IMG/VR virus record: IMGVR_UViG_3300044675_001894
Coordinates: 1 to 64,000 of that record
Source of the DNA: a virus
Reading direction: 5' to 3' (one strand)
DNA length: 64,000 bases
Shown here piece by piece: positions 1-43,051 of this stretch; position 1 is the first letter of the stretch, and each line of letters starts with the position of its first letter. The position numbers and the translations under genes are program-made. Below the pieces are notes generated by a model. The model was not told the origin of the DNA and searched no databases. It saw only the letters and a program-made list of their open reading frames with translations.

Positions 1-523
1 CGCCAGCAGGCGCACCAGAAGCCACACGGCTTAGTGAGGACGAAGCAAATGCTCGCTTATCTACAACCAACTCTGTGGTGTAGGTGGTATTAAAAGTATT
101 CTTTACATAGACGGCATACAGCGGAATTTGTGTGTCAGCCAGCGTTGGGAACACTGGGTTAGTTGCACTAGATGTTCCCTGTACTACGTCAAACTGGAAA
201 GTACCACTGTTGTTGTATGCAACGATAATGTCAAAGCGGGTGTCGCTACTAATTGGAGCGGCAGCAACAACGACAGTTGATCCTGTAATAGATCCGTATG
301 TGTTACCAATACGGACCTCTACAGTACCGAGAGTTACGTTGAGGTAGGCAGGCGTTGCGTTACCAGCGGCACTAGCCACTGCAGTAATGTTTGCTCCACT
401 GATTACACCATGTCGGTGATCACCAATACTTGAAAAGTCAAGAGAGTCTGGCTCTGACTGATCTAATGAGGCAATATTCCCAAGTCCAAAATCGGTTGCG
501 TTAGGGACTGTAAAGCCTGCCAT
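1..523 (-). CDS. Virion structural protein, partial (runs off left edge)
   Basis: Not in ORF track. Translated manually from ATG at 523: MAGFTVPNATDFGLGNIASLDQSEPDSLDF...TRFDIIVAY..., open to the edge; follows the capsid gene. Confidence 0.7.
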   Translation of the reverse strand, partial: MAGFTVPNATDFGLGNIASLDQSEPDSLDFSSIGDHRHGVISGANITAVASAAGNATPAYLNVTLGTVEVRIGNTYGSITGSTVVVAAAPISSDTRFDIIVAYNNSGTFQFDVVQGTSSATNPVFPTLADTQIPLYAVYVKNTFNTTYTTELVVDKRAFASSSLSRVASGAPAG

Positions 524-2815: not shown

Positions 2816-4504
2816 TTAATTGTCTTCGTCTGGGTTACGGCGCTGGGCGAACCTTGCTCCGTATGCCCGTGAAACTATCTTGTTTACTAACTCTTCTTCA
2901 ATCGGTGGAACCCCTGGTAAAGGACCATTGCCACCGTCTGACGAAGTTACATTACCATCTCCAGGTGAGGTGGGTGCGGGAGCCGCTCCACCGTCTGGAG
3001 TCGCAACCATTCCAGTAGCCAACATAATGGCTTGCTGAATTTGGGCACGCATCATGTCAAGAGATCCCTGATCCAGGGCGTCTTCTTGAAGTTCTTCAAA
3101 GATTTCAAGCATCTTTTCGTTCGGGAATTCCTCACCAAGTAGACGTAGAGCGCCACGCTTGGACTCAAGACCAAGAGCCATCTTGGCTTGTACTTCATTG
3201 AGTTTGATGAGTTGATCAACAGGCAATGGTTCAGGCCAGTGAACTGTTGTTTTATAAGTCACAGGGTCACCAGGATTTAACTGCGGTAACTGGTCTGTCT
3301 CAGGTTCAGCAGCAAGCAATGGGTTGTAGGTCAACCACTCAGGTTGGAAGATAGCAACAGTACGAATGATCAATTCGTTTACACGCTCAAGACCCTTTGT
3401 AAAGTGGATCTTTTTCATCATGAAACGGTTCATCATTGGCTGGTATTGAATAGCCAAAGCAACACCTGAGGTGTTAGACACTGGCTGGAATTGACCCAAC
3501 GCAGTTTCAGGAACACCTGTCATTTCGTGCATGGTGCGCTTAATAAATGCGATGTACTCCAAAGCGCCAGCCATCTCACCACGAGATTCAAGGTTGAATA
3601 CGTTTGCGTCTTTAGGAAGACCTGCCCAAACCTTCTTAGGACCACGCTCAAGTTGTGAAGCCTTAGCACCAGTGATGATCGTTACAGGAGCGGCGTGGTA
3701 GTTAATGATGTCTGAGACTTCAACCATCTTCTCGTTGAGTTCACGGTTGAGAGGGATGATGTCCCAAATGTCTGACTGACCCCAAGGTGACGACGAGATA
3801 GTGGAGTTAGGAATGTGGACAATAGGGATCGTTCCCAAAACGTTGTCGTACTGGTCAATAAGTTCATCGTTAATAAACTGTTGAACTGTTTCATCAGTGA
3901 GGATCTCAGTAAATGTATAAACCTGACGAGTACCTTCTGGTGATGTTCCCCAGAAACGATACTTAAGTTTGAATCTAATGATTCTGTCACGGTCGTGTGG
4001 GTGATACTCAGGGAAGCAATGCGCTGGGTTCAAAGGAATGATGCGGACACGACCCTCATGCGGGATTCCAGCAGGATCAACAAATGGCTCTTCAAAAGCA
4101 ACTTTGACAAAGGCGTCACCAGTTACAGAAGCAAGTTGACCTAGTTCCCAAAGAACGTAATGCTTGTTGTTGTCTTGATCCCAAACTCTATGAAGTAGGT
4201 GCGGGATAATCGCACCGTTCTGCTCAGGGACTTTAAATTGAACGCCCTTACCAAAACAAAAGTTGGTGATGTAATCCGACATGGTGCGGACATAGTTCAT
4301 GTAGAACTGTGACTCACCCATCTCACGGCGGTATGACCAGTGGTGACCTAGGTACCAAGCCCAAGCGGCGCCGTACCTGTTTAGGCGAGGTCCATGGACT
4401 TCAAACTCTTCGTCTGCGAGTTCAACTAACCCAAGCGGGGATATAGCAACTGTTAGGTCGCTTGAAGATGCTCTATATGATGGCGACCAAAAATCAACTG
4501 CCAT
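2816..4504 (-). CDS. Portal protein (SPP1 gp6-like)
   Basis: 562 aa; motifs IPIVHIPN, WGQSDI, SGVALAIQYQP; head-module position. Confidence 0.9.
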   Translation of the reverse strand: MAVDFWSPSYRASSSDLTVAISPLGLVELADEEFEVHGPRLNRYGAAWAWYLGHHWSYRREMGESQFYMNYVRTMSDYITNFCFGKGVQFKVPEQNGAIIPHLLHRVWDQDNNKHYVLWELGQLASVTGDAFVKVAFEEPFVDPAGIPHEGRVRIIPLNPAHCFPEYHPHDRDRIIRFKLKYRFWGTSPEGTRQVYTFTEILTDETVQQFINDELIDQYDNVLGTIPIVHIPNSTISSSPWGQSDIWDIIPLNRELNEKMVEVSDIINYHAAPVTIITGAKASQLERGPKKVWAGLPKDANVFNLESRGEMAGALEYIAFIKRTMHEMTGVPETALGQFQPVSNTSGVALAIQYQPMMNRFMMKKIHFTKGLERVNELIIRTVAIFQPEWLTYNPLLAAEPETDQLPQLNPGDPVTYKTTVHWPEPLPVDQLIKLNEVQAKMALGLESKRGALRLLGEEFPNEKMLEIFEELQEDALDQGSLDMMRAQIQQAIMLATGMVATPDGGAAPAPTSPGDGNVTSSDGGNGPLPGVPPIEEELVNKIVSRAYGARFAQRRNPDEDN

Positions 4505-4605
4505 TAGGACATGTGCCCCTATTCAAATTTGTAGGTGTATAAATTGTAGCCTGAGATAACAATAGCGTGTTGTGAGTCGGTGTGGGAGGAGGTATCGTGG
4601 ACGCC

Positions 4606-4776
4606 ATGGGAACTGGAGTATGGGAAAACATAGAACGTTTAGTCAAATCACCAACATGCGTGGTATGTGGTGAAGAGACAAACCTGGGCGGAAAAGGAAA
4701 GTATGAATTGTGCAAAAAACACAATTCGTGGATGACTTACTTTTTCTTACGGTTTAACAACTCTTCAGAAGCGTAA
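4606..4776 (+). CDS. Small Cys/His protein antisense to head operon (probably leaderless)
   Basis: CVVC...LCKKH; TATCGT -10-like hexamer 7 nt before ATG 4606. Confidence 0.4.
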   Translation: MGTGVWENIERLVKSPTCVVCGEETNLGGKGKYELCKKHNSWMTYFFLRFNNSSEA

Positions 4777-5321
4777 ACTCCAGCCATTTCTTCTCGGCTA
4801 GGTATAATCTTCACGGTCTTTTCTGCTTGAGAAACCGCTGGTTTCATTGGGTCCTTTGCAGTCCCAGTTGACCAATCATTACCTGAATGTAGGTGTTCTG
4901 GGATATCAACGCTTCCAGCGTACCCACCTGTCTCATTGACCTCACCAATTGCTTGCTGACGGTTACGAGCGCCTTTTGTGTAGGCGGTCATAAACCCTTC
5001 ATCTGTGCGTGGAAGTGCCTCTGAGACGTCCTGAGTGCCTTCTCCTTCGGCAGGTACCCACCCGCCGTGGTACATGTCAGCACCCTTAAGAAGACCCTTA
5101 AACTTTCGTTGGTAACGGCTAATTGCACGAGACTGAACAGGGGCTGTAATGGTTTCTTCTACCCGTTCTTTAGGTAGTGCAACCATGTACGAGTCTTTAG
5201 CCTTTGCTCCAGCGTTCGCACCATAGGCGACTCTGGACCAGCCTGAACTACCGTCTTGGGCAATCTCTGTGTTTACTTCTTTAGCAAGTGTAGAGACTTC
5301 TCGCTTGGGCATTTTTGCCAT
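4737..5321 (-). CDS. Hypothetical protein
   Basis: 194 aa ORF, start overlaps upstream stop. Confidence 0.65.
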   Translation of the reverse strand: MAKMPKREVSTLAKEVNTEIAQDGSSGWSRVAYGANAGAKAKDSYMVALPKERVEETITAPVQSRAISRYQRKFKGLLKGADMYHGGWVPAEGEGTQDVSEALPRTDEGFMTAYTKGARNRQQAIGEVNETGGYAGSVDIPEHLHSGNDWSTGTAKDPMKPAVSQAEKTVKIIPSREEMAGVYASEELLNRKKK

Positions 5322-5587
5322 TACTTTTTAGCGGCGGCTTTCTTAGCAGGAGCCTTCTTGACAGGTACGTTTGTCATAGCGGCGGCTACTTCTTTAGCGG
5401 CTGGGAGGCGACCAAAAGCACCATCGTTAGGGTTGATTGCTCGCAAGGCTACTGGAGCAAGAGCCGCCAATAGTGAGTAAGCAAGTGTCTGTGGGTCAGT
5501 TACACCCGACATGTAGAGAGCAAGACCAGCACCGAGTACTGAACGTCCGTACGATGCGAGCATGCTTTTTAGTTGTTCTGTGTTCAT
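5321..5587 (-). CDS. Putative holin
   Basis: Two hydrophobic segments, RAINPNDGAFG motif, basic K/A-rich tail. Confidence 0.6.
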   Translation of the reverse strand: MNTEQLKSMLASYGRSVLGAGLALYMSGVTDPQTLAYSLLAALAPVALRAINPNDGAFGRLPAAKEVAAAMTNVPVKKAPAKKAAAKK

Positions 5588-5614
5588 AACACTCCTTGAA
5601 TAGGTTTAGATTGA

Positions 5615-6247
5615 TTATACCGTTTTACGGGTTCTGGTGCTTTCTTGTCCTTGAACATACGTTTGGTATGGGGGACCTGTATACGGGTCAAACCTAGCCG
5701 CAATATTAAGAGCCTTAAGGGCACTCGTTTTAGCCTGCTGGGCTGTCCACTTCTTTTTGTTCATCATGACCTGTAGAGCACCTAGGGCGTAATGCGCCCC
5801 AGACCCTATGGCGTAGATACCACTGGATTCTGAGCACCATGCGTAGTCGCCATCAACCATGTAGATAACGCCATTGACTACCACAATGATGCTGGATCCT
5901 TGTTCTGCAATGTGCTGTTTGTTTTCATTGAGGTCTGGAATTGAATAACCCTGTGCATCAAAGCACTCACGCAATGAAGGAATGAACTTGGCAGTAAAGA
6001 ACTGATCAAGTTTCTTTCCCTTTAGATTTGGAGGTACTGCTGGGGGCTGGAATACATGGTGCAAGATATTGATTGCACGCACATCTCCAGCCGCTCCTAG
6101 CAAGTATTTACCATTAGTAGACACCTTGCTTGAACCTTCACGAAGCGTTCCAGTTTGAGCAAGACCGTCAGCAAACATAGTTGAGATACGTGAGTCAACA
6201 CATACCACAGCAAAGCCGTCACCTTGAATGCCAACGATTGTTGTCAT
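5615..6247 (-). CDS. Proteasome beta-subunit/HslV-like Ntn threonine protease
   Basis: N-terminal M-TTIVG, DSR, K, AGD, AIGSG..YALGAL, D..TG: Ntn-hydrolase signature. Confidence 0.85.
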   Translation of the reverse strand: MTTIVGIQGDGFAVVCVDSRISTMFADGLAQTGTLREGSSKVSTNGKYLLGAAGDVRAINILHHVFQPPAVPPNLKGKKLDQFFTAKFIPSLRECFDAQGYSIPDLNENKQHIAEQGSSIIVVVNGVIYMVDGDYAWCSESSGIYAIGSGAHYALGALQVMMNKKKWTAQQAKTSALKALNIAARFDPYTGPPYQTYVQGQESTRTRKTV

Positions 6248-7401
6248 TAGTCTGCTTGGTATTCTTTACCTTGGTACATTCCCCATCCGTTGTAGATAGG
6301 AATGACGTCGTAAGAGAAACGATGTTGGTTGTCATCTTCGTAACGAACTATTCCTAAACCTTGTTGCCAGTTTTCGTGACGAGTCAACGGGCGTCCGTCA
6401 AGATCTACGCCTCCACGTGTGGACGGAATCGCTCCGTCAATACGGGCAAGGCAACCAGGAGAAGCAGCCATGATGGTGCGTGGACCATCAAAGTCTTCAC
6501 GTGTTTTAAACGCCGTTTCAATGCGGTGAATATGCCCATAGATAACACTCGTCTTCTCTTGGTTGAGATAGATGTGCGCAGTTGAACCTGACGACTTCAC
6601 ACGATCGCCGTGGATGATTCGGAGTTTCTCATTGACCCAGTAATCAGATGCTGGGTATCCTGGCTTGTAAACAACATTGAAATCGTCCATACGACAAAGG
6701 TATGGAACACTCAAAACAGGCCATGATTCTGGGGTGTTTCCCTTGCGCAAACCATAAGCGGCTGATGCATTTACCAAGAGGTACTTAGGCATACGCTCTT
6801 CGTGGTTACCAGCAAGCCAAACGATTTCTGCATCAGGAGCCGCAGAACGCACCTGTGCACAGAACACTGTTGCACGATCAATTGATGCTTGTGTTGTTTG
6901 TGCATACGCAGGGTATGTCAAGTACTTACCCATCTCAGGGAAGTCAAGGTTGTCACCAACACAAATAACAGCATCAGGATTTAATTCTTCAATGATCTTG
7001 AGTGCAACACTAAGTGCCTTCTCATCATGAGTTGGTTCTAGTGTTCCATCACGTCCACGGTAGTAACCAATTTGAATGTCAGGAACAACAACACATGTTT
7101 TGAATGTTGATGCTTTCTTTACCTTTGCTTTAGGCGTTGGCATTTTGATTGCAGGACCTTGTTTAACAACAGGCCACTCTGGACCAGTTTCCCACTTAGG
7201 AGAAAACTGAATAGCGGCGAGGTCATGGATATGCGCCTCACCTTCTGAGTCCTTTGACATTGCTTGGTACAACTTGACACGCTTGATGTCACCAATTTCA
7301 TTGATGTCAATGTTCTTGCTTTCAAGCATTTCAACTAACTTGCCAAGCAACTTACTCTTGTCTTGTGGTGCGGTTGTTAACGCTTTTGCTAGTTCACTCA
7401 T
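6247..7401 (-). CDS. Calcineurin-like metallophosphoesterase
   Basis: PDIQ, GDNLD, GNHE, HGD, GHIH motifs; start moved to MSELAK (7401) after an AAGGAG RBS. Confidence 0.85.
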   Translation of the reverse strand: MSELAKALTTAPQDKSKLLGKLVEMLESKNIDINEIGDIKRVKLYQAMSKDSEGEAHIHDLAAIQFSPKWETGPEWPVVKQGPAIKMPTPKAKVKKASTFKTCVVVPDIQIGYYRGRDGTLEPTHDEKALSVALKIIEELNPDAVICVGDNLDFPEMGKYLTYPAYAQTTQASIDRATVFCAQVRSAAPDAEIVWLAGNHEERMPKYLLVNASAAYGLRKGNTPESWPVLSVPYLCRMDDFNVVYKPGYPASDYWVNEKLRIIHGDRVKSSGSTAHIYLNQEKTSVIYGHIHRIETAFKTREDFDGPRTIMAASPGCLARIDGAIPSTRGGVDLDGRPLTRHENWQQGLGIVRYEDDNQHRFSYDVIPIYNGWGMYQGKEYQAD

Positions 7402-7697
7402 TGTGCATCTCCTTGGTAACAGCAACACTCTTTGTTGACGTGTCGCTGGATTGTGCTTATACTCACGTTGTAACCATGTTGACGCATAACTTTAGTAAGC
7501 CATGATGCGCTGTATGATTTGCTTTTACCTAAACCGTTGTCCTCACGAATGAGTTCAATTGCACGGTTTATTGCTTCTTGTTCGTCAGCAGACATTTTGT
7601 CTACTGTTCTGGTGAACTTGCATGCGTCTGCCGAAAGATTAGTTCGGGGAGAAAGCAGGGCGTCCAGCAGTGTTATTTTCTGCTCTTGTTGTTTCAC
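7398..7697 (-). CDS. Small HTH-like protein
   Basis: SASWLTKVMRQHGYNVSISTIQRH resembles an HTH; coupled to phosphoesterase gene. Confidence 0.55.
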   Translation of the reverse strand: MKQQEQKITLLDALLSPRTNLSADACKFTRTVDKMSADEQEAINRAIELIREDNGLGKSKSYSASWLTKVMRQHGYNVSISTIQRHVNKECCCYQGDAQ

Positions 7698-7771
7698 AAA
7701 TACCTAACCTTTTCCAATTCAGAATTACGGTCAGGAATATCCTAGCACCCAATTCATGGGTGTGTCATGTA

Positions 7772-8008
7772 TCACTTCTTAGCGTCTAGGTGCCAATCAA
7801 TGTGGTTCTCAAGACGTTCGGATACTGCTTCTACTTTGTCTCCGACGCTGTCAACACTGCGTCTTACACTCTTTAAATGAAGCATGACCATTCCGTGGTC
7901 ATTGCGGTTCTCTCTACGGAGTTCTTTTAGTTGTTTAATTCCTGCGCCAACAACTCCAGCAACAGTGGTAATAAGGGTGGCGATAATAAGCGCCCATGCA
8001 TCGGTCAT
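7772..8008 (-). CDS. Small membrane protein (TM plus coiled coil; possible lysis accessory)
   Basis: N-terminal hydrophobic helix; C-terminal RLENHIDWH. Confidence 0.6.
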   Translation of the reverse strand: MTDAWALIIATLITTVAGVVGAGIKQLKELRRENRNDHGMVMLHLKSVRRSVDSVGDKVEAVSERLENHIDWHLDAKK

Positions 8009-8010
8009 AG

Positions 8011-8769
8011 TTAATCAACTATTCCCCTCTGTCGGCGCCAGTTTACCCAACCTACAGCCTGTGCTTGGCTTGGGAGCATCCCTAAGTTACCAGCGGCATT
8101 ACGATGCGCTTCAGAAAATGTGTTGTATCTAGTAGGAGTCTGTAGCCCACGGTCAGCACTCCCAAGTACACGACCAACAGTAATATCGTGAGCATGACGA
8201 TCAACTGTCACGGCTTCAGGGTCATCTGGGTTAACAATGTTTTTAAAGAAGTTCCCTGTTTTCCTGTCCATTGGTAAATATTGTTCTGGCTGTGCGGAAC
8301 CCTCAAGGACTGAACGAGCCTGTGATACCTGCCGCCCAGTTACAAAACCACCACTAGCGGTTCCAGTATCCCTTAATTGGCGTGCCATACGCTGGTTGTC
8401 ATTCCAACCAACCTGCGAACTTAGGATTGCAATAGCGCCAGCCCCACGGCGTACATCGCCTTTTCCAATTTCAGTTGCAAAATCATGGGCACGCTTATAC
8501 CAGTCCATACCAGATTTAACATCTTCTGGACTAGCCGTTTTTACGGCGTGGGTGACGTTATGAACCATGCGATTAAATTGGCTTGGATGTAACTTATCCA
8601 TACGAGCACCCAATGCATTAGTAGGGTCCCAAGCACCAATGTTCTTACTTCCCTCTTTTGGAAGTACTCGTTTATAACCATGTGCTACAGGATCAAAGCC
8701 ACGACCAGTAGGAAGGCTTAGTTCTCCACTGTTTTCTGGTACATACAAATCGCCAGTATCCTTAGCCAT
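8011..8769 (-). CDS. Helical DNA-glycosylase-like protein (DUF7178-like)
   Basis: GMDWY, AILSSQVGW..N, KTGNF..NI, VTVDRHA, QAQAVGW motifs; family recalled, not searched. Confidence 0.6.
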   Translation of the reverse strand: MAKDTGDLYVPENSGELSLPTGRGFDPVAHGYKRVLPKEGSKNIGAWDPTNALGARMDKLHPSQFNRMVHNVTHAVKTASPEDVKSGMDWYKRAHDFATEIGKGDVRRGAGAIAILSSQVGWNDNQRMARQLRDTGTASGGFVTGRQVSQARSVLEGSAQPEQYLPMDRKTGNFFKNIVNPDDPEAVTVDRHAHDITVGRVLGSADRGLQTPTRYNTFSEAHRNAAGNLGMLPSQAQAVGWVNWRRQRGIVD

Positions 8770-9227
8770 CAGATGCCATCCTTATTTTCAGGGTTAGCCT
8801 CTGCGTACGCACGGGTACCTTGTGCACGTCGTCGCATTGGGTCTTGTGGGCGGTGGTTCATACGAACACCTGTAGAAGTTTTATTTAAACCAGATCGCAT
8901 AGGCTTAAACAGATCAAGCGCATCTTGATAACCAACACCAAGTCCTGACATGTTGCGCTTCATGTCAATACCACCCCTAGGTCCTGGGGTTTTTCCAATT
9001 AGTGGATTGCGGTCGCTTGTACCGTAATCAGGGCGTCGGTACTGTTGATGGGTGTCGTGGAATTGTTGTTTACGGGATTTCATTGCCCCCGTAAAGAATC
9101 CTGCCCCAGCATAAACTTGACCAATCGCTATCCCAGATTGGGTATTAGTAGGGGGAGTCGTTGGACTCCCCCCACTTTCAACAGCGCTGTCAGTTGTGCT
9201 GGCGCCTGCATCGGCGCCGCCTTCCAT
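8769..9227 (-). CDS. Hypothetical, predicted disordered protein
   Basis: 152 aa, G/R/P-rich, coupled to neighbours. Confidence 0.6.
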   Translation of the reverse strand: MEGGADAGASTTDSAVESGGSPTTPPTNTQSGIAIGQVYAGAGFFTGAMKSRKQQFHDTHQQYRRPDYGTSDRNPLIGKTPGPRGGIDMKRNMSGLGVGYQDALDLFKPMRSGLNKTSTGVRMNHRPQDPMRRRAQGTRAYAEANPENKDGI

Positions 9228-9229
9228 AA

Positions 9230-9631
9230 CTAGTCGTTAACGACTGTTGGATTCATGCGGTTCATTTTACCGCCGCTGTTTTGCTCGTACTCAAATGCTG
9301 GCATACCGTCGCCTGACATTGAACCTTGAACGAATTCTGAAAGAACCGCAGGTGCTTCAATCCATGAAGCCGAACCTACGTGAGCACGCTCACGCATTGT
9401 CTCTTCAGGGTACTTGTAGAACATTTCTGGGTTGTTGTGGTTCTGACGACCAGGAGCCGACGATGGGTCAGCATATGCACCACGAGCAAAGTCGTTAGGT
9501 ACATCTGTGTCAGTTGCTACGCCTTCTTCAAAGCGAAGTGGTCCACGGTTGCCTGGGATACTTGGCGCCATTGAACGCTCAAAAACGTTCGGTGAGCGCT
9601 CTGGGAATTGTGGTGCTGGTGCTACGTTCAC
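9230..9631 (-). CDS. Hypothetical protein downstream of terminase
   Basis: 133 aa, GGAGG RBS, GTG start. Confidence 0.7.
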   Translation of the reverse strand: MNVAPAPQFPERSPNVFERSMAPSIPGNRGPLRFEEGVATDTDVPNDFARGAYADPSSAPGRQNHNNPEMFYKYPEETMRERAHVGSASWIEAPAVLSEFVQGSMSGDGMPAFEYEQNSGGKMNRMNPTVVND

Positions 9632-9677
9632 GTAAGCCTCCGTAATAGGGGTTTTTTAACTTGTTACTAGAGTACCA

Positions 9678-11237
9678 TTAATTAAAGAATGGATTTTCTG
9701 CTACTTGGATCGTAGGCAGGGTGTCATGCATAGACATGAAACAGGCAATAGCCAAGGAGTCTGGGTAGTCGTCAAAAGCACCCTTTTCATCAGGTGCCTC
9801 AGCCAACATATACGGACCACGATAGGTCTTTTCTAGATCGCTCATCTGCTGATTAAAGCGCTTCCATCCACGAGTACGCCGTGCTTTAGAGTGCCCTGGA
9901 ATTATTAATTGATCTCTCTGAATCAACTCTGTAAGATGTACCCATCTCTCATGCTGTGCCTTTGAGTCTGATGAGACTGCAACAACATCTATGTCTGGTA
10001 GAAGTACTTGGAAGCGCTCCGCTACAGCACCACCAACACCTTGAGAGTCAATGCCGATTCTGATCGGGTCATAGTTTCTTAAGAAGTCAATGATCTGGAA
10101 GTACTGGGATTCCCATTCTTCGTTGTTAATCTCCAACCAGTTAAGAACACGGTGCTCATGGAAGCCGAAAGGGTCTGGGTGGTCCCAGTCAACCCAACAG
10201 ACTGTCACTACGGTGGAGTCATTAGATCGGGCAACGTCAATACCGACTACTACAGGAGTACGCCACCACTGCTTTACAAGAGCCATAGAGGGGTCATACA
10301 GGCGTTCTAAGCGCTCATCGGTTACAAACATACCTCGGTCAAGCACCCACTTGTTACAGTAGGACATCTGGAACTCGTCTGAGTCCTCACCGATTCGCAA
10401 TTTCTCTTTAGCAATAAACTTGGCGTAGTTAGGGTTGTACTTTGAAGCAACACGGTAGTCATACTCAAAGTGACATGGGCGTGTTTTCTTACCGTTGACC
10501 ATGCGTCGCTTGTTGTACTGGATCATCTTATAGAAGTAAGACTTGTTACGGGTAGCCGTTCCCGTCAAACAGATACTGCCGTTGTTAAACGCCAACATCG
10601 GCTTAATTGATTTAGCAATCATGTACTCGTCGGCTTCTTGAGCCTCGTCAATCATGACGAAGTGGTACGTCTTTGATTCAATCTTTGCTTTTGGGTTACA
10701 GGTCTGCATACGGCAAAGCGAGCCAGAGTGCTTCAAAGTAATGATGCGACCTTTACCACGGGCACCACCTGAAGTTGCCTTATCGTCAATCTCGGGGTCT
10801 AACAAGAAGTCCATTGCGTGGTCGCTAGTAAGTTTGCCAACGATACGACTGAACACCGTATCTGCTTGATCTTCTACTGGGGCGAACACTCCGCACCAAA
10901 AACCCTTATCAAACTTGTCAAGCCATGTTGGATAAACCTTTGCTAACTTAGGCAAAATCACCATGAGTGAAGCCATGACGTTAGAGAGAACCTCAGATTT
11001 ACCTGACTGACGTGTAGCCACTACCGTCATTTCTTCACCGTCACCAAGGATGACAGATTCAATCAATCGGTAGGCAATAGGTACCTGATACGGGAATAGT
11101 TCCACATCGCAGAACTCTTCGGTAAACACAATGATGCGCTTTACCAGCACGTCTATGAATTCGGCTGAAGTCTCGTCCAGTTCTTCGGCTACGTCCTCGG
11201 CTAAGAGGTTATCGTCTAGTTCTTCGTCTGTTAGCAC
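9678..11237 (-). CDS. Terminase large subunit
   Basis: Walker A TRQSGKS, Walker B VMIDEAQ, GTA coupling motif, nuclease VGIDVA and DDYPDS. Confidence 0.95.
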   Translation of the reverse strand: MLTDEELDDNLLAEDVAEELDETSAEFIDVLVKRIIVFTEEFCDVELFPYQVPIAYRLIESVILGDGEEMTVVATRQSGKSEVLSNVMASLMVILPKLAKVYPTWLDKFDKGFWCGVFAPVEDQADTVFSRIVGKLTSDHAMDFLLDPEIDDKATSGGARGKGRIITLKHSGSLCRMQTCNPKAKIESKTYHFVMIDEAQEADEYMIAKSIKPMLAFNNGSICLTGTATRNKSYFYKMIQYNKRRMVNGKKTRPCHFEYDYRVASKYNPNYAKFIAKEKLRIGEDSDEFQMSYCNKWVLDRGMFVTDERLERLYDPSMALVKQWWRTPVVVGIDVARSNDSTVVTVCWVDWDHPDPFGFHEHRVLNWLEINNEEWESQYFQIIDFLRNYDPIRIGIDSQGVGGAVAERFQVLLPDIDVVAVSSDSKAQHERWVHLTELIQRDQLIIPGHSKARRTRGWKRFNQQMSDLEKTYRGPYMLAEAPDEKGAFDDYPDSLAIACFMSMHDTLPTIQVAENPFFN

Positions 11238-11255
11238 AGACCAATCATAGACTAA

Positions 11256-11525
11256 TTAGTAATCGGTTTTATCAAACTTGAGTTGGAGTTGCGATTCGTC
11301 GTTAAAGACTGGGCGTCGTGGGCGCAATTCTGAGATTAAGGCGGCTGAGTCCTCAATGATCATAATGAGGCTCTTGAGGTCTACGGAGACACTCTCAGGG
11401 TCTTCTTCAGAGGTCTGGAAGACCTTCGGGGAATACGATTCAGTAACCAAAAAGAGGTCATGAACTGCATTGATAAGGCGTCGTTTTTCGGTTGCTTCTA
11501 GGTTGTTGATAGTTGGTTTTGACAT
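11256..11525 (-). CDS. Hypothetical protein
   Basis: Probable start MSKP (11525), TACTAT 7 nt upstream; track extends to 11591. Confidence 0.55.
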   Translation of the reverse strand: MSKPTINNLEATEKRRLINAVHDLFLVTESYSPKVFQTSEEDPESVSVDLKSLIMIIEDSAALISELRPRRPVFNDESQLQLKFDKTDY

Positions 11526-11544
11526 GAATTTGATAGTACCACTT

Positions 11545-11787
11545 CTATTTGGTGGCATCAACCCGTCTTTGTAATTCTTCCCAAATATCATCTAGAGCCT
11601 TAATGAACTCTGTTACTTCACCTTCAGGACCACCGTGATAACGCCAACGGTCAAACGAAGCGCCGAGACCCATGATGGTGGTGTCAAACCACTGAAGTAA
11701 TGAGGCTCGGTCTAAGTTCTGTACACGCTTAGGCACATCTCTTCTGGCTGTTTGCTCTTCTTCTTTTTTAAAGAAACCCATCACCAC
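11545..11787 (-). CDS. Hypothetical protein
   Basis: 80 aa ORF coupled to neighbours. Confidence 0.6.
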   Translation of the reverse strand: MVMGFFKKEEEQTARRDVPKRVQNLDRASLLQWFDTTIMGLGASFDRWRYHGGPEGEVTEFIKALDDIWEELQRRVDATK

Positions 11788-12047
11788 ATTCCAATCTCTT
11801 GTGCAGGTGTGTCCATCTCACGACCACCTATTGCTTGTAGAACACCATCTGTTTCATCTTGCATTTGAATACGCTTACATAGACCTACTTGCGCTGTGTA
11901 CTTGCGGGTGCGCAACTGTATACCTTTACCATGTCTCCATGGGTAGTCAGTTTCTCTTACAATACCCATAGAAACAAAAGGGGTATTAAGGTTTGCGAAA
12001 TCTCTAACAACCCAGTAAAGGCGTCCAATGGCATGGAGCCTATTCAT
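11781..12047 (-). CDS. Hypothetical protein
   Basis: 88 aa ORF in operon. Confidence 0.6.
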   Translation of the reverse strand: MNRLHAIGRLYWVVRDFANLNTPFVSMGIVRETDYPWRHGKGIQLRTRKYTAQVGLCKRIQMQDETDGVLQAIGGREMDTPAQEIGMW

Positions 12048-12049
12048 AA

Positions 12050-12505
12050 CTACATCTGAGATTGTACGAAAAACGTGCTCTCTTCATCGCCTGACGCCCT
12101 ACTGTTTGGAAAGTTATTAAGTACCGAGTTAATATAGCGCCCTTTTGATTGAGCAGACGCAAATGATTGATAAACATGTTCTGGGACGTTCAAGTATTTC
12201 CAAGGAGTGCCGTTTTTAATAAAACGAACAAAGAGTATGCCGTTGTAGCCAATTGCTCCAGATGTACCTTCAGTAGCGACATATCGGAAGGCTTCTACAC
12301 GACTGCTCTCATCAGAGGCATGGTAGTAAGTGGTATTTGGATCCCATTGAATTGGAATCATTTCTGATGGCTTAAACTTCGTTTCGTTTGCACGAGTACG
12401 AGTACGCTCTTCTTGAATAGCGTATTGACCTGAGTAGTAGTTTAAACCTTCAGCCAAACGATCTTTTGCTGATCTACTTAGTCCTGGTTTAGGTCGTGGT
12501 GCCAC
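12050..12505 (-). CDS. KTSC-domain protein
   Basis: SSRVEAFRY...LFVRF..G..WKYLNVP..VY..F..A.SKGRYIN. Confidence 0.8.
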   Translation of the reverse strand: MAPRPKPGLSRSAKDRLAEGLNYYSGQYAIQEERTRTRANETKFKPSEMIPIQWDPNTTYYHASDESSRVEAFRYVATEGTSGAIGYNGILFVRFIKNGTPWKYLNVPEHVYQSFASAQSKGRYINSVLNNFPNSRASGDEESTFFVQSQM

Positions 12506-12509
12506 TTAT

Positions 12510-13277
12510 TTATTTTAGTCCTAAAAGTTGCTTTACTTTTGGACCGACAACAAAGTCCGCACCAAGTTTGTTAGCAACCTTAAACGCCTTCACGGCTTCA
12601 TCCGTTGCTGAGTCTTTTTGACCAGTGACTTCACCCTTGTAGAAGCCTTTTGCCTTGAGGGCTTCTTGAAGTTTCTTGATGTCATCCCCACCTGCTGGGG
12701 CGGGGGCTGGAGCCGTACCTACTGGTGCAGTTACCCCATTGGCATCCATCCATGCTTTTACTGATGCTGGGATATTGTCGCCACATACATAACGAAGGTG
12801 CCATGGCTCGCTTGGGACAACTTCCCATGAGAAACCAAATTCCTTCACGTTTGCAATCAACCAGTTGAGGCGCTTTGGCTCTGATGCTGAGTGAATGTCA
12901 ACCGCCAAGCCGAGGTTATGCTGCGATTTACCAGGCGTGGCAAGCATCGCCATACCTTTCTTGAGGTACCAAGTCTTGCCTTCAAATGTCTTGGTGCTGG
13001 TTCCGTCCACTTTGTCAAGTGTGTAGCGGGTCAAAAATCCTCGTTTTTGCAACTCGTAATCTCTATATGTATCGCCGCTGGAAGTTGGTTTTAGTTCAAC
13101 GCCTTCAGCCTTAGCCTTTTCAACCATTGCGGTCCATGCGCATGCGGCAATCCAATGCATCTTGCCGCCACCAGGAACGGCTTTCAAAAGGTTGGCAGGG
13201 AGTTTTCCTGGTTCAATACCTTTGAGATCTTTTGGAAGTACTACTGGAACAATGTAATCCCATGCAAGTTTGCCCAT
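12510..13277 (-). CDS. Endolysin: M15B/VanY-like peptidase plus C-terminal peptidoglycan-binding domain
   Basis: YR, PGKSQHNLGLAVD, EPWH; IKKLQEAL...T.EAVKAF PG_binding_1-like tail. Confidence 0.85.
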   Translation of the reverse strand: MGKLAWDYIVPVVLPKDLKGIEPGKLPANLLKAVPGGGKMHWIAACAWTAMVEKAKAEGVELKPTSSGDTYRDYELQKRGFLTRYTLDKVDGTSTKTFEGKTWYLKKGMAMLATPGKSQHNLGLAVDIHSASEPKRLNWLIANVKEFGFSWEVVPSEPWHLRYVCGDNIPASVKAWMDANGVTAPVGTAPAPAPAGGDDIKKLQEALKAKGFYKGEVTGQKDSATDEAVKAFKVANKLGADFVVGPKVKQLLGLK

Positions 13278-13334
13278 GATTTTCCACCATCTTTCCTGTT
13301 ACACACAGCGTTGTCTTGGCACTATTTTACACCA

Positions 13335-13934
13335 CTAGTAAACGAAAGAAATCCAACCAGTAGCAATATACTTTGTATCGTTTTGAGAGGTAACGCCCCT
13401 GTGTGTGTACATCCAATCAGCAGGAAATATGATAGTTAGCCCTTTTTGTGGCTGTATTGACAGTTTTTGATGAAACCATTCTGTTGTCCCACCATCAAAA
13501 ACATCATTTAAGTAGGTGTTAAAGACTAATAGTCTCTTAGATACCCCTGATGTTTGTCGTTCAGAATGCCAAGCAAAAAACCCTTCATTAGGCAAATACC
13601 TCTGAATGTTTATTCTTTCAGTGACCCCCCAATGGTCTAGTTCACCGAGTACAGGAAATAGGTTCTTATACTCAGTAACTACTTTTTCAAGTTCATGTGT
13701 GTACTTAACAAACGGGGTATCCCCACAGTCCGTGACAATTGATAGGTCTGTTGACTTCTTCCAATCCTCACGAAGAACTGGGGTAGTTCCGTTGTAGGTC
13801 ATTCCAGCGCTTTTATTTGGGCTGCTTTCAAAATAAGAAATTAGATCATCACACACCTGACCATCTATGTACCATCCCTTTAAAAAAGGGTCAGCATGAT
13901 TCATTTCGTATGATTCAAGCATTATGTAACCCAA
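13335..13934 (-). CDS. 2OG-Fe(II) oxygenase
   Basis: IQRY..GFFAWHSE, YLNDV..GG.TEW, THRG, KYIATGW. Confidence 0.85.
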   Translation of the reverse strand: MGYIMLESYEMNHADPFLKGWYIDGQVCDDLISYFESSPNKSAGMTYNGTTPVLREDWKKSTDLSIVTDCGDTPFVKYTHELEKVVTEYKNLFPVLGELDHWGVTERINIQRYLPNEGFFAWHSERQTSGVSKRLLVFNTYLNDVFDGGTTEWFHQKLSIQPQKGLTIIFPADWMYTHRGVTSQNDTKYIATGWISFVY

Positions 13935-14523
13935 AGTTAAAAGAAATAACTATCTTGCGGTCACCAACAAGGGCTGGGCACCCGTGCATGAAGTCGCTTT
14001 TAAACATTAATAATCTTGCTGGAATGCACTTATATGAAACGTCTTCAAAAGAGTACTTATTAGGAAATGGAGCAGGGCTTATCATGTTCTGCGGGTTGTC
14101 ATAGAACTTAATAATGTCCTTGTCATCACAATCAACGTAATAAGCGCCACTAATAAAACTGCTTGGATGATTATGTGGAAATAGATAATCTCCCTCAACT
14201 GATAGGTTTGACCACATATTTTCTAATATTAAGTGCTGTTCCCTTAAATCATAACCAAGGGCTACCGCAAACTTTCGTGCTTCGTTTGTTAACTTCCTTA
14301 TAAACTCTGCAAAGAAACTTTCTTTTTCTAAATTTACTTGATTGTGGGTTGAGTTTACATTCAATTCTGGTGTTCTTTTGAAGTCACTATTGAATAGGAA
14401 CATTTCAGACAACCATATATCCATTTCTTCTATGGTTTCAGAACAAAAGTTATCTAATAAATAGATTGGCTTTGGAAACCATTGTTCAATTTTTGCTTCG
14501 TTATTTACAAATAAAGTTGACAT
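13915..14523 (-). CDS. 2OG-Fe(II) oxygenase (TIGR02466-like)
   Basis: MWSN, PHNHP.SFISGAYY, LLMF.S..MHG, ISFN. Confidence 0.8.
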   Translation of the reverse strand: MSTLFVNNEAKIEQWFPKPIYLLDNFCSETIEEMDIWLSEMFLFNSDFKRTPELNVNSTHNQVNLEKESFFAEFIRKLTNEARKFAVALGYDLREQHLILENMWSNLSVEGDYLFPHNHPSSFISGAYYVDCDDKDIIKFYDNPQNMISPAPFPNKYSFEDVSYKCIPARLLMFKSDFMHGCPALVGDRKIVISFNFGLHNA

Positions 14524-40221: not shown

Positions 40222-40590
40222 CTACGCTCCTGGTCTCTGGTCTACAGAATAACGTACAGGTACTTCCATGTTTGGGTCAATATCATGGGCTGTGGCAATA
40301 CGATGGTCACCATCCCATACTCGTACACCAGAGCCATAATTTGTTAGACGCAGGTGTACAGGGGTTTGAACCCCTTCTTTTTTAATATTGTCGTAAAGAC
40401 TCTCTTTTTTACCCCCATATGGGTGTCCCTCTTTAGATTCTCGCAATTTTGTAGCACGTAGGTTAGGAGACTCAGCCATAGGAAGATAACCTGAACTAGA
40501 TGTTTCCTCACCTGCGGCGGGGTATGTCATCAGTTCCCGTGCAGGGATAAACATGGACAACTGACCACTGAGGTGCTCTTGTGCGGGCAT
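40222..40590 (-). CDS. ParB/Srx-like protein, paralogue of 36585..36953
   Basis: QLSMFIPARELM, IKKEGVQTPV, WDGDHRIATA, EVPVRY. Confidence 0.75.
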   Translation of the reverse strand: MPAQEHLSGQLSMFIPARELMTYPAAGEETSSSGYLPMAESPNLRATKLRESKEGHPYGGKKESLYDNIKKEGVQTPVHLRLTNYGSGVRVWDGDHRIATAHDIDPNMEVPVRYSVDQRPGA

Positions 40591-40607
40591 TTATCTAGTA
40601 TAGAGGG

Positions 40608-40994
40608 TTACTTAACTTCAAGCACATTCTCTGGAGGAATGTGACCCCAGTGCATTGCTGAACCTGTTTGGCGAAGGCTATTCTTCCAGTCACTAGAATC
40701 ATCAGTACGTAGTTTAGACTCATCAAAATTTCTATTTACGCTTGTGTGTACAGGATCCTCAAAGGAGTTCCAGTCCACTTGCAGGTTTCTTGGGTTTACA
40801 CGGACTTTTACGATTGCTGGGTCTTTGTGCATACTGGCGTAGTGTTCAGCCAATTCATGGTCAGGTGTTACATAAACATTGGGCTTACCGAGTCCTGTGC
40901 GTGCACCTATCCCATGTTCTTTAATGTCTTGAGCGTTCTCTTTTGAAGTCCCATGGTACATATGCATGTGGAACTGGTCGGGACTAAGAGCCAT
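40608..40994 (-). CDS. ADP-ribosyltransferase-fold protein
   Basis: YHGTS...I...G, VYVT...A.HYA, IPPE..: H-Y ART/Tpt1-like signature. Confidence 0.65.
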   Translation of the reverse strand: MALSPDQFHMHMYHGTSKENAQDIKEHGIGARTGLGKPNVYVTPDHELAEHYASMHKDPAIVKVRVNPRNLQVDWNSFEDPVHTSVNRNFDESKLRTDDSSDWKNSLRQTGSAMHWGHIPPENVLEVK

Positions 40995-41132
40995 AGTTTC
41001 AAGTATAGGGCTATTTGGGCGGGTTGGGTGGTCGGTCGGATTTTTGGATGGGGCTATTGCGGTGGAGCAGTTCGGGTGGGGCCTGTTGTCTACCCCCCGC
41101 CTCCGCTCGCCCCCTCACTTAACCATGGGGGG

Positions 41133-41232
41133 TTATCCACAGCCCGCTCCATGCCCTGTATGGCTCGCATGGGTTATCCACAGGTACCCCTGTGTACAGC
41201 CTGTGGATACTGTGGAACATCTCTGTGGAACA
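41133..41232. promoter_or_regulatory. DnaA-box cluster
   Basis: TTATCCACA at 41133-41141 and 41174-41182; reverse-oriented TGTGGATAC 41202-41210, TGTGGAACA 41211-41219 and 41224-41232, TGTGTACAG 41191-41199. Confidence 0.75.
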
Positions 41233-41239
41233 TTGGGGG

Positions 41240-41253
41240 CGAACACCCGTTTG
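41240..41253. promoter_or_regulatory. LexA (SOS) box-like site
   Basis: CGAAC-ACCC-GTTTG, one mismatch to CGAAC-N4-GTTCG. Confidence 0.5.
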
Positions 41254-41317
41254 TGTGACGTTCGTCACGTGTGACCATCGTCACATGGATTGTTCCAATC
41301 GTGTGACATTCGTCACA
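41254..41317. promoter_or_regulatory. Three CRP/GlxR-type sites
   Basis: TGTGA-CGTTCG-TCACG 41254-41269; TGTGA-CCATCG-TCACA 41270-41285; TGTGA-CATTCG-TCACA 41302-41317. Confidence 0.75.
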
Positions 41318-41787
41318 AACCCTTGACAAACGCCAAAACGCCTCAGACGCACCACAATGCGTTCTCAGAGGAGGAGGGAGGGATGTAAGGGGTCAAGGCG
41401 GGCAGTGGTACAAAGTACCCTCAGAGAGGCTCTCGTACGCCTACGAATAGGGCTATGAGCCTTGCTGGGTAAGGGTTTGCGGGGTATGGGTAGGTTACGA
41501 AGTACTCGCCACAGCGCCCCAATTGCTATCCACTGCACACTCGCTCCATATCGGCACCTGCACGCAACACAGAGCCTCCTAGGCACCTCTCCTGCCATCC
41601 TGCGGTATTCATTGATCAATTGAATTCTGTGGGTATTCATGCCTCCTCTCTCCTGTATCTCCTCCTCCATCCGATGGATGGCTGGTCGTTGGGGGCGCCC
41701 AATTCCAGCCCTGTCCCCGCCGTCCCGAGGCTCCAGCCCATGCTGGGCAAGGCTCAAAAGAATTCTCAGGAATTGTTTAATTGGGGG

Positions 41788-41818
41788 TTGACAGATGTAC
41801 CCCATCTGTGCGTTTAAT
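41788..41818 (+). promoter_or_regulatory. Putative early promoter with overlapping palindrome
   Basis: TTGACA 41788-41793, TTTAAT 41813-41818 (long 19-nt spacer); ACAGATG-TACCC-CATCTGT 41791-41809. Confidence 0.4.
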
Positions 41819-41941
41819 GGGGGTGGAGGGGGATGCGTCCCCCGCCTCGGTTCCTTGACAAGTGGCAGGTACGGCACGCAGGCTTCGCCCTGCGCATTTT
41901 GCGTTCCTGCCCTCAGAATCAAACATGGTTCAAAATTCCTC

Positions 41942-42068
41942 AGCGTCACGGGCTGGCTTCGGCTGGCTCGTGGCGCTCAATGAGGGCTGGAGGCATTCCC
42001 CCTGCTTCAGCCCTGATTGAGCGCACAGCGCTCCATTGGCACACAGCCAATGCAGTCCTGAGGAGGAC
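41942..42068 (+). ncRNA. Structured intergenic RNA element E0 (hairpins A/B/C plus SD hairpin)
   Basis: A 41942-41977 with c(UUCG)g loop; B 41973-42024; C 42019-42033; GTCCT-GAGG-AGGAC 42055-42068. Confidence 0.75.
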
Positions 42069-42073
42069 ACACC

Positions 42074-43051
42074 ATGGATATTCAACTATCAACACTCAAT
42101 CCTGTGGAACACGATTTGCTGTACATGGAGCGCCTACGGACAGCGTCCAAAGCGAACTACCAGTACCGAATCACCAGCCACTACTTGATCAGTGCCTATG
42201 GCAAGGAGTTGCGTTGGAGCAATGGCTACGGAAGCCGTGACAGCGTTGCTGTCGTGGACTACCGCACCGATCCAATGCCCACCGAATATGCACAAGCACG
42301 TCTCATGGAGTTGTACGGCGAAACTGCCGAGGCAATGTTCAATGACGGCGTGGTCGGCATTTACGGCTCACTGCCAACCCGTGAGGCTGAACGCTTCACT
42401 GAGGCTCGTATCGCAATGGAGGATGCACGGCGTGACCTGCGTGAGTGTGACACCGAATATGACAGCCGTCCTTGGAGTCGTTACTTCTTGGTCACGTCAT
42501 CGGATGGGCACATTCACTCCAGCACACAGTGCTCCACCTGCAATAAGGGCGTCAATGACACTGAGTTTGCACTCGTGCCTTACCTCAGCGGATCCAGTGC
42601 CGATGTTGCGGTTGCCGATCTCGGATCGGCGCTGTGCTCGGTCTGCTTCCCTGATGCTCCCGTGGAGTCACGTGAGCAGGTCAAGATCAGCGCCAGCGTG
42701 GCGTTGACACTTGCCGAGCAGGGCGTGGAGGCATTCCAGCAAGCCCGAGCCAAGGCTCGTGCGAACGCTGTGAAGCGTGCTCAGGAGCGTTGCGAAGGCA
42801 GTGGTCAACCAACGGTCAGAAGTGATCGCTGGCATCATTGCCCAGTATGCGGATATGGACAGCGTGCGGACGGTAAGTCCCGTGCACATCGCCGTCCTCG
42901 CTTCTACGCCACCAAAGAGGTCGGCTACGACACCAAATACTGGAACGGCACCACGTGGGCGCCATCAACCAAGAAGGTTGACCTACTCACTCGTGAGCAG
43001 GCTGAAGCCGTCTTGGTGGCTCACGGTGGCTCACGAGTCATTCAGGATTGA
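42074..43051 (+). CDS. Hypothetical Cys/His-rich early protein
   Basis: GHIHSSTQCSTC, LCSVCFP, CPVCG...H. Confidence 0.75.
   Translation: MDIQLSTLNPVEHDLLYMERLRTASKANYQYRITSHYLISAYGKELRWSNGYGSRDSVAVVDYRTDPMPTEYAQARLMELYGETAEAMFNDGVVGIYGSLPTREAERFTEARIAMEDARRDLRECDTEYDSRPWSRYFLVTSSDGHIHSSTQCSTCNKGVNDTEFALVPYLSGSSADVAVADLGSALCSVCFPDAPVESREQVKISASVALTLAEQGVEAFQQARAKARANAVKRAQERCEGSGQPTVRSDRWHHCPVCGYGQRADGKSRAHRRPRFYATKEVGYDTKYWNGTTWAPSTKKVDLLTREQAEAVLVAHGGSRVIQD

Follow-up and report, generated by a model that had tools for sequence, protein, structure and literature searches.

Which proteins would read a dense cluster of regulator-type words at the head of the early genes of a virus, and what would they decide there? 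This question is raised by positions 41133–41328 of the IMG/VR virus record IMGVR_UViG_3300044675_001894, a genome of 96,857 bp with 47 % GC, whose first 64 kb were the stretch analysed and are called the window in the following. Almost all genes are located on the minus strand, the exception being a plus-strand block of 12.4 kb (41.0–53.4 kb, 52–57 % GC), and the cluster, here termed the panel, sits in a gap of 1.08 kb without a credible open reading frame (ORF) between the start of a minus-strand gene at 40994 and the first plus-strand early gene at 42074. Since the block encodes typical actinophage genes (WhiB, DUF932, DUF6011, DUF2786, SNF2 helicase), the portal protein is 53 % identical to the portal of Streptomyces phage BRock and its relatives, and the phage DNA recurs in at least 15 lake-water metagenome runs, the virus is, judged from its sequence, an uncultured lake phage of actinobacteria. 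The original prediction had proposed for the panel either a DnaA-dependent origin combined with a sensor of the cell state, or a decoy array for host regulators. With high confidence the stretch is a protein-binding control panel of some kind. The reading that we somewhat favour is that of a cis-regulatory panel, modular in build, which heads the early arm and is kept for global regulators of the host; it would most likely tie the start of infection to the state of the cell.

All elements of the original prediction were recovered in place, and their words match the DnaA, the Gram-positive or actinobacterial LexA and the CRP-family consensuses. The panel begins directly behind a family-wide anchor (CACTTAACCATGGGGGG, 41116–41132, plus strand, preceded by CTACCCCCC), which forms the left border of the variable part. 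Two forward DnaA-type boxes on the plus strand follow, both reading TTATCCACAG (41133–41142 and 41174–41183); they hold the perfect 9-mer TTATCCACA at 41133–41141 and 41174–41182, each copy embedded in the 13-mer GGGTTATCCACAG. The second box begins 41 nt after the first and forms a perfect 10-bp inverted repeat with 41200–41209. Facing them on the minus strand are the degenerate box CCTGTGTACA (41189–41198, two mismatches to TTWTNCACA), the box CTGTGGATA (41201–41209; GTATCCACA with one mismatch) and two direct copies of CTGTGGAACAT (41210–41220 and 41223–41233), in which the 9-mer TGTTCCACA has one mismatch to the relaxed DnaA consensus. A span of 101 nt accordingly holds two perfect copies of TTATCCACA, three boxes with one mismatch to TTWTNCACA (GTATCCACA and twice TGTTCCACA) and one box with two. 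The four reverse DnaA boxes of the original prediction are present, but what they share is the core TCCACAG and not the full DnaA consensus, from which they deviate by one or two positions.

The right half of the panel is composed of dyads. A LexA/Cheo-type box, CGAACACCCGTTTG (41240–41253, CGAAC-ACCC-GTTTG, one arm imperfect), abuts the first of two palindromes of 16 bp each, TGTGACGTTCGTCACG (41254–41269) and TGTGACCATCGTCACA (41270–41285), which in turn abut each other and are of the CRP-family type TGTGA-N6-TCACA with C6/G11. A gap of one unit (16 nt) then separates them from palindrome 3, TGTGACATTCGTCACA (41302–41317), and is filled by a GATTG-TTC-CAATC palindrome (41288–41300). Measured against the 16-bp dyad, two sites are perfect and one has a single mismatch. 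Five nucleotides past palindrome 3 stands TTGACA (41323–41328, plus strand), a candidate −35 element. In Mycobacterium tuberculosis the LexA consensus is TCGAAC-N4-GTTCGA, and LexA binds some sites there without repressing (PMC3381160). The predicted CGAAC-N4-GTTTG match exists as such, but it is an imperfect copy with one arm off (GTTTG) and three mismatches to this 16-nt consensus. For CRP the consensus is TGTGA-N6-TCACA, and the CRP-family member Clr recognises sites with conserved C6/G11 and a 4-nt spacer (PMC10187061).

Counted one by one, the motifs are only modestly more frequent than in shuffled sequence: TTATCCACA occurs twice against 0.6 expected, the LexA-like word once against 0.25, and CRP sites with at most one mismatch six times against 4.4. 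What is peculiar to the panel is their density, with 10 motif matches within 200 nt compared with a maximum of 3 in 300 first-order Markov simulations. Both perfect copies of TTATCCACA in the whole genome lie in the panel, as do all three TGTGAC-N4-GTCAC(A/G) palindromes and 5 of the 13 TCCACAG words.

Conservation among related phages points in the same direction. The 16-mer CACTTAACCATGGGGG of the anchor is found exactly in 24 IMG/VR contigs (mostly records of related phages, several of them 91–97 kb long) and in 18 related contigs from JGI, and it is kept whatever site set comes after it. Aligned on the anchor, the relatives form four groups. Group A (the window, L121, L153, L144, L143, L145, L085/L155, L159/L160) carries the whole panel in the same order, so that about ten related lake-phage contigs retain it, and group B (L124, L152, L150, L158, the last identical with L004) has four to six TGTGAC palindromes only. 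Group C (L141, L151, L156, L157, L148) shows palindromes of the form GTTGCA(A/T)ATGCAAC (GTTGCAWATGCAAC), one of which follows a TATAAT at a distance of 9 nt; a single GTTATCCACAG lies further away. Group D (L147, L161) possesses a perfect 20-bp palindrome, AATGTTCCACGTGGAACATT, built from the word GTGGAACAT that also occurs in the CTGTGGAACAT copies of the window; GAACA-type direct repeats 11 nt apart come after it. In groups C and D, different readers appear to be plugged into the same slot behind the anchor.

A phylogenetic footprint of six group-A sequences (70–93 % identical overall) shows that the boxes are under selection. All 51 columns of the five TCCACAG boxes are invariant, namely 10/10 in each forward box, 9/9 in CTGTGGATA and 22/22 in the two CTGTGGAACAT copies, compared with 24/59 in the spacers; the degenerate box CCTGTGTACA reaches 5/10. 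The 41-nt spacing of the forward boxes is retained in L085 over a diverged spacer. Palindromes 1 and 2 (41254–41285) are invariant in 25 of 32 columns and the GATTG-TTC-CAATC palindrome in 6 of 13, its place being taken in relatives by an ATTGTT(A/C)CAA-like word in either orientation. Palindrome 3 is intact in the window, L121 and L085, one base weaker in L159 and decayed in L143/L144. In the LexA-like box the arms are retained, whereas the four bases between them vary (ACCC, CCTT, ATAT) and the position shifts: relatives have a perfect CGAAC-CCTT-GTTCG at the place of the window's box, or CGAAC-ACCC-GTTCG or CAAAC-ATAT-GTTCG left of the anchor. In L085 the box has moved across the anchor, and L159/L160 hold two copies. 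Because the arms stay while the inner bases change, it appears to behave as a real dyad site. Relatives also differ in the panel by indels of 1 and 2 nt, so that it is not coding. The sites are selectively conserved and are exchanged as modules among related phages.

The same words recur in other phages, and there they are tied to promoters. An exact scan of IMG/VR with TGTGACGAANGTCAC yielded many contigs, several of them also with WhiB genes. In L075, L080, L063, L072, L027/L057/L091 and L150 the palindrome stands directly upstream of complete TTGAC(A/T)-16..18-TAnnnT promoters, and in 19 of 22 such cases, from 10 loci, its gap to the −35 is exactly 10 nt, which places the dyad centre near −53.5. 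Because of this constant gap and centre, the palindrome would be a fixed upstream promoter element in other lake actinophages. A half-site matrix of 127 sites from 29 loci reads TGTGAC(G/A)(A/T). The Rex operator (TTGTGAA-N4-TTCACAA) was considered as an alternative; position −1 of the half-sites reads A 75, C 44, G 87 and T 48, and position 6 is C in 221 of 254, C being part of the search pattern. Since there is neither an A/T-rich flank nor a T before TGTGA, Rex is unlikely, and the sites seem to be of the CRP family rather than specifically CRP sites.

Perfect CGAAC-N4-GTTCG boxes occur 16 times in 1.135 Mb of palindrome-bearing loci, compared with two occurrences of the reversed control, and 8 of the 16 are no more than 120 nt away from a palindrome, their inner ends mostly being A...T like those of the Gram-positive LexA consensus. 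In the unrelated L025 (a 17-kb IMG/VR contig, 38 % GC), pairs of GGTTATCCACAGG...CTGTGGAAAA stand directly before CRP-type palindromes at three promoters. The same contig has, over 4199–14101, twelve TGTCAG(TG/AC)-N8-TAnnnT promoters in 14.5 kb, mostly behind a CRP-type palindrome and three of them behind inverted DnaA-type box pairs; their form corresponds to the PafBC/RecA-NDp promoters of actinobacteria and is absent from the genome of the window's phage. Since palindromes, LexA-type boxes and DnaA-type pairs co-occur at promoters in these other loci, DnaA-, LexA- and CRP-type words together ahead of early genes appear to be a recurring design in lake actinophages. Like the window's phage, the phages L025, L075, L080, L072 and L027/L091 have TGTGA-N6-TCACA, CGAAC-N4-GTTCG and TTATCCACA in non-coding DNA ahead of early genes and carry WhiB. 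The window's phage differs by having one panel of less than 200 bp per genome, no PafBC-type promoters and no complete promoter adjoining, and its panel, unlike their cassettes, adjoins a family-wide anchor and possibly lies near a genome end. A third palindrome of 6-4-6 geometry, GTTAGG-N4-CCTAAC, is found beside the TGTGAC and CGAAC palindromes in L027, L091, L057 and L075; it resembles an IdeR/DtxR iron box, an assignment which was dismissed as the dyad centre differs from that of the 19-bp iron box.

Could the panel be an origin of replication, primary or auxiliary, of the iteron-plus-DnaA-box type known from plasmids, with the palindromes acting as iterons? Facing arrays of DnaA-type boxes beside repeated palindromes at a strand switch do recall the origins of P1, F and pSC101, and as in lambda ori and these plasmids, repeated dyads and DnaA-type boxes are united in one short non-coding stretch. 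However, the genome contains a complete origin of another kind, 36 kb away. Its replication module at 71–78 kb encodes an SNF2 helicase, a primase-like stretch (named from the gene order of BRock; a 694-nt gap without a called ORF), a DnaB-like helicase, a DnaC-like loader and an O-like initiator of 172 aa (genome positions 77090–77608, minus strand). Inside the initiator gene lie four iterons of about 22 bp with the dyad GTGTCAC-NN-GTGACAC (77184–77272; the origin corresponds to L162 1323–1449), which encode the repeated peptide SVTGDT, and beside them an AT-rich tract with repeated AACAAGAGTA (77146–77178). Equivalent arrays are present inside the initiator genes of groups B, C and D, so that this arrangement is conserved in kind throughout groups A–D; in group D the iterons read GTGAC-N6-G(T/A)CAC and accompany a changed recognition helix, NKRTVIR. 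With iterons and an AT-rich tract in an O-like gene that adjoins the DnaC-like, DnaB-like and primase genes, 77.15–77.27 kb has all the marks of a lambda-type origin. In contrast, the kilobase that holds the panel has the highest GC content in the window (57 %), the panel lacks an AT-rich unwinding tract, its dyads have another geometry, and relatives keep the region though the DnaA boxes are dropped in group B and the palindromes in groups C and D. The initiator does carry a Crp-like helix, which speaks for the origin reading. On the features compared, the origin claim is nevertheless rejected for the panel as highly improbable.

As to the readers, profile searches of the phage proteins with LexA_DNA_bind, Bac_DnaA_C, HTH_3 and Sigma70_r4 gave no match, each with positive controls. 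Phage_integrase, HTH_3 and LexA_DNA_bind likewise had no match at E≤1 with positive controls, serine recombinases and other repressor folds lying outside this search, and by HTH_3 and LexA_DNA_bind at the same threshold no gene for a cognate CI/Cro-type or LexA-like repressor was recognised. Since the phage encodes no recognisable LexA, DnaA or XRE-type protein, host proteins would be the simplest readers of the panel. Taken one by one, the assignments differ in strength: a LexA-type reader is somewhat probable, a reader of the CRP family has about even chances, and DnaA is the most tentative, less certain than either of the other two.

If host proteins are the readers, the panel could work as follows. 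The three TGTGAC-N4-GTCACA palindromes would bind a dimeric host factor of the CRP/FNR family (Crp/GlxR type) and thereby control an early promoter lying immediately downstream. Host LexA would bind the abutting CGAAC-N4-GTT(C/T)G box, by which the CRP-type input would become sensitive to DNA damage. The two plus four facing TCCACAG/TTATCCACA boxes would bind host DnaA and either report replication and ATP status or hold the DNA.

Each of these inputs has known counterparts. Phages that make use of single host regulators are known: LexA boxes occur in temperate phages, DnaA boxes in lambda, P1 and T5. LexA (SOS/Cheo) boxes control phage promoters in coliphage 186 (tum), CTXphi and the Bacillus phage GIL01. 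The panel resembles the LexA-controlled phages in its CGAAC-N4-GTTCG arms with the inner A...T preference, in the absence of a phage LexA and in the position of the box in a phage control region. However, those cases are temperate phages with the box over the promoter, whereas here it is placed upstream of a candidate −35, abutting the site of another factor, and the window's phage has no tyrosine integrase and no repressor of the XRE type (HTH_3) or LexA-like kind. With the class I and class II sites of CRP/FNR proteins, including actinobacterial Crp (Rv3676) and GlxR (PMC10187061), the palindromes share the 16-bp TGTGA-N6-TCACA dyad, in related phages also a constant helical placement ahead of the −35, and, as in Clr, C6/G11 with a 4-nt spacer. 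They differ in having the centre near −53.5 (−48.5 here) and not at −41.5 or −61.5, in tandem sites 16 or 21 bp apart and in flanks that are not A/T-rich.

The promoter itself is the weakest link in this scheme. TTGACA follows the last intact palindrome after 4–5 nt in the window, L121, L085, L124 and L152 and after 10 nt in L150; in the window the gap of 5 nt puts the dyad centre near −48.5, and no −10 is present. The predicted TTGACA at 41323 is there, but a TAnnnT −10 follows it in no close relative. Two more conserved TTGACA words, at about 41788 and 41855, also lack a −10, and a sigma-70 promoter scan of 40500–42600 found none. A complete promoter that the panel could serve was thus not recognised, since TTGACA at 41323 stands without a TAnnnT partner. 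A LexA operator overlapping a promoter core was not found here either; in L075 and L080, too, the box lies upstream of the palindrome (gap 0–9 nt or more).

Several points weigh against host regulators as readers of a promoter-linked panel. No group-A member has a TAnnnT 16–19 nt past TTGACA 41323, and the LexA-type box is found 70–83 nt upstream of this candidate −35 and not over it. None of the classical CRP positions has its centre near −48 or −53, the 16 bp between the centres of two palindromes are tight for two DNA-bending CRP dimers, and the flanks of the palindromes lack the A/T-rich CRP context. The reverse boxes match TCCACAG better than the DnaA 9-mer, the conserved extra G of TCCACAG/GTTATCCACAG lies outside the DnaA consensus, and high-GC actinobacteria favour TTGTCCACA. 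The host assignment rests on the WhiB, DUF932 and DUF6011 genes and on the 53 %-identical BRock portal. Finally, the recognition helix of the phage's own initiator, (D)RRTVIR, resembles RETVGR of CRP.

This last point leads to the explanation that phage proteins read the sites, chiefly the O-like initiator, which would bind the TGTGAC palindromes as a dimer, or else unrecognised small early proteins. It may be compared with the Rep dimers of iteron plasmids, which act at inverted-repeat operators or secondary iteron clusters in replication–transcription coupling and handcuffing. The initiator is the only phage protein with a Crp-like helix-turn-helix and passes the HTH_Crp_2 threshold (30.9–31.5 bits), and the two arginines by which CRP touches both G of TGTGA are present in its helix (PMC10187061). 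Moreover, its iterons contain GTGAC, groups A and B share a DRRTV(I/M)R helix together with the palindromes, group D has NKRTVIR and no palindromes, and phage-specific operators typically show such an exchange of palindrome types among relatives. However, the iterons are everted (GTCAC-N2-GTGAC) and the panel sites inverted (GTGAC-N4-GTCAC), group C shares the iteron core (GGTCAC-CA-GTGACC) while its panel is devoid of TGTGAC palindromes, and five palindrome-rich phage contigs, one closed by terminal repeats and one 94 % complete, lack an initiator homologue. A comparison of ORF presence with five relatives revealed three ORFs (98, 187 and 152 aa) that occur in groups A and B and are absent from C and D, but none of them has a recognisable DNA-binding domain; in addition, early promoters have to fire before phage proteins exist. 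Readers encoded by the phage are unlikely on this evidence, and the initiator above all stays a serious rival.

No complete promoter adjoins the panel, which favours another explanation, namely that it is not a promoter input but an element associated with a terminus or with titration. In the first form a DnaA-box array near the first-injected end would hold or pause the DNA, like the injection-stop (iss) array of T5; in the second, a sink similar to datA would soak up DnaA, LexA and CRP as the genome multiplies, which is the decoy idea of the original prediction. In T5-like phages the terminal repeat has a large untranslated region full of repeats, and eight conserved DnaA boxes are located there, at a distance from the replication origin (bioRxiv 10.1101/866236). 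The panel is similar to the T5 array in its six to eight consensus or near-consensus DnaA boxes in an untranslated region rich in repeats and palindromes, in a lytic phage and far from the origin. In T5, though, the boxes are paired at a distance of 3 bp within defined inverted repeats that belong to a terminal repeat of 10 kb, whereas the panel has two forward boxes 41 nt apart facing four reverse boxes 9–13 nt apart and adds LexA- and CRP-type sites; its terminal location is only suggested, by synteny with BRock.

BRock (NC_048650.1; L201, L202), the nearest relative in culture, is linear with a direct terminal repeat of 221 bp. Its plus-strand early block of small genes lies at the left physical end behind 868 untranslated bases, the remainder being on the minus strand, and the minus-strand array starts 412 nt from the right end, so that joining the ends would leave about 1,059 nt between block and array, as compared with 1,080 nt here. 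Because of this synteny, the physical ends of the window's phage lie probably in the gap at 41.0–42.07 kb. The ends were looked for in assembled contigs. Assemblies often break within a few hundred bases past the anchor, in favour of a nearby terminus, but the contig ends scatter 99–429 nt past it without a single-base pile-up and coincide with repeats and strain-variable points. A DNA contig has two-fold depth over 41092–41603, but its borders fall at points where relatives diverge, and several strains sharing a conserved block explain it equally well. The end region of BRock carries none of the panel's sites, a genome with a single LexA box and three palindromes would hardly work as a sponge, and in other phages the same palindrome is locked to promoters. 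A terminal or titrating role is therefore rated as distinctly unlikely.

Of similarly low probability is a combination of both ideas, drawn from the analogy with T5 and BRock. The panel would then lie in or beside the first-injected terminal repeat; membrane-associated DnaA would hold the entering end, a role that has been proposed for the T5 injection-stop signal, and LexA together with a CRP-family protein would decide on the firing of the first early promoter. If this were true, entry and early transcription of a lytic actinophage would be gated by three host master regulators at once.

The remainder of the gap has features of its own. At its left margin a leftward promoter is suggested by the −10 hexamer TATACT (41002–41007, minus strand), which lies 7 nt ahead of the start codon ATG at 40994; the mRNA is probably leaderless. 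No other strong −10-like hexamer exists anywhere in the gap. The hexamer is found at the same offset in groups A, B and D and overlaps the repeat ATAGGGCTAT. In the form ATAGGGCTAT/ATGGGGCTAT this repeat is present three times, at 41005, 41048 and 41447. Positions 41001–41132, which make up the left part of the gap, hardly vary across the groups and also contain GGTGGTCGGTCGGATTTTTGG, CTACCCCCC and the anchor CACTTAACCATGGGGGG; candidate roles for them are those of a packaging or end-processing site or of a family-wide operator. To the right, 41330–42074 forms a long and strongly conserved non-coding leader with CGTTCT(C/A)AGAGG, CCCTCAGAGAGGCTC, a TATCCACTG word at 41527 and a terminator-like hairpin at 41877–41894. 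RNA folding of the panel on both strands gave z-scores of −0.5 to −2.0 and no sign of structured RNA, and an Rfam search of 40500–42600 returned sub-threshold miRNA noise only. A possible site of the ECF type (GGAAC-N17-GTT over 41227–41251), present in most relatives and absent from L085, was judged coincidental.

The whole gap of 1.08 kb (40999–42076) acts as a cassette: wastewater and lake contigs match over it and pass into other genes precisely at both flanking start codons, its loose ends lying at 40999/41002 and 42076/42081, and G001 keeps the gap and has neither of the window's flanking genes. Two runs labelled as RNA-Seq, which are probably DNA, have high depth over 41.0–42.1 kb; this reflects a cassette common to phages with different flanks and is uninformative on expression. 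At 41000 of the window the composition steps sharply from about 46 % GC on the left to 57 % on the right. The 12.4-kb early block begins at this step, and its set of genes is strongly mosaic among relatives. In a search of cultured phages at the nucleotide level, 40500–42500 found no match, and a WhiB query against a genome collection gave only 20-residue matches, in metagenome-assembled genomes of Saccharibacteria.

Our literature search returned nothing relevant on the palindrome, on DnaA boxes of actinophages or on CRP at actinophage promoters, nor did it bring up any account of DnaA-, LexA- and CRP-type sites joined in one conserved composite before the early genes of abundant lake actinophages without an integrase or a recognisable repressor. 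Within the design that recurs in these phages, the panel is an unusually compact instance. The swapping of site sets behind a fixed anchor amounts to a natural experiment for matching readers to sites, and the panel itself, should its readers be host proteins, would be a compact and ready-made piece of DNA on which the still uncharacterised DnaA, LexA and Crp of uncultured lineages could be tried. In that case the phages would sense replication status, DNA damage and cAMP before committing to infection, which would bear on the timing of infection by phages of slow-growing freshwater actinobacteria.

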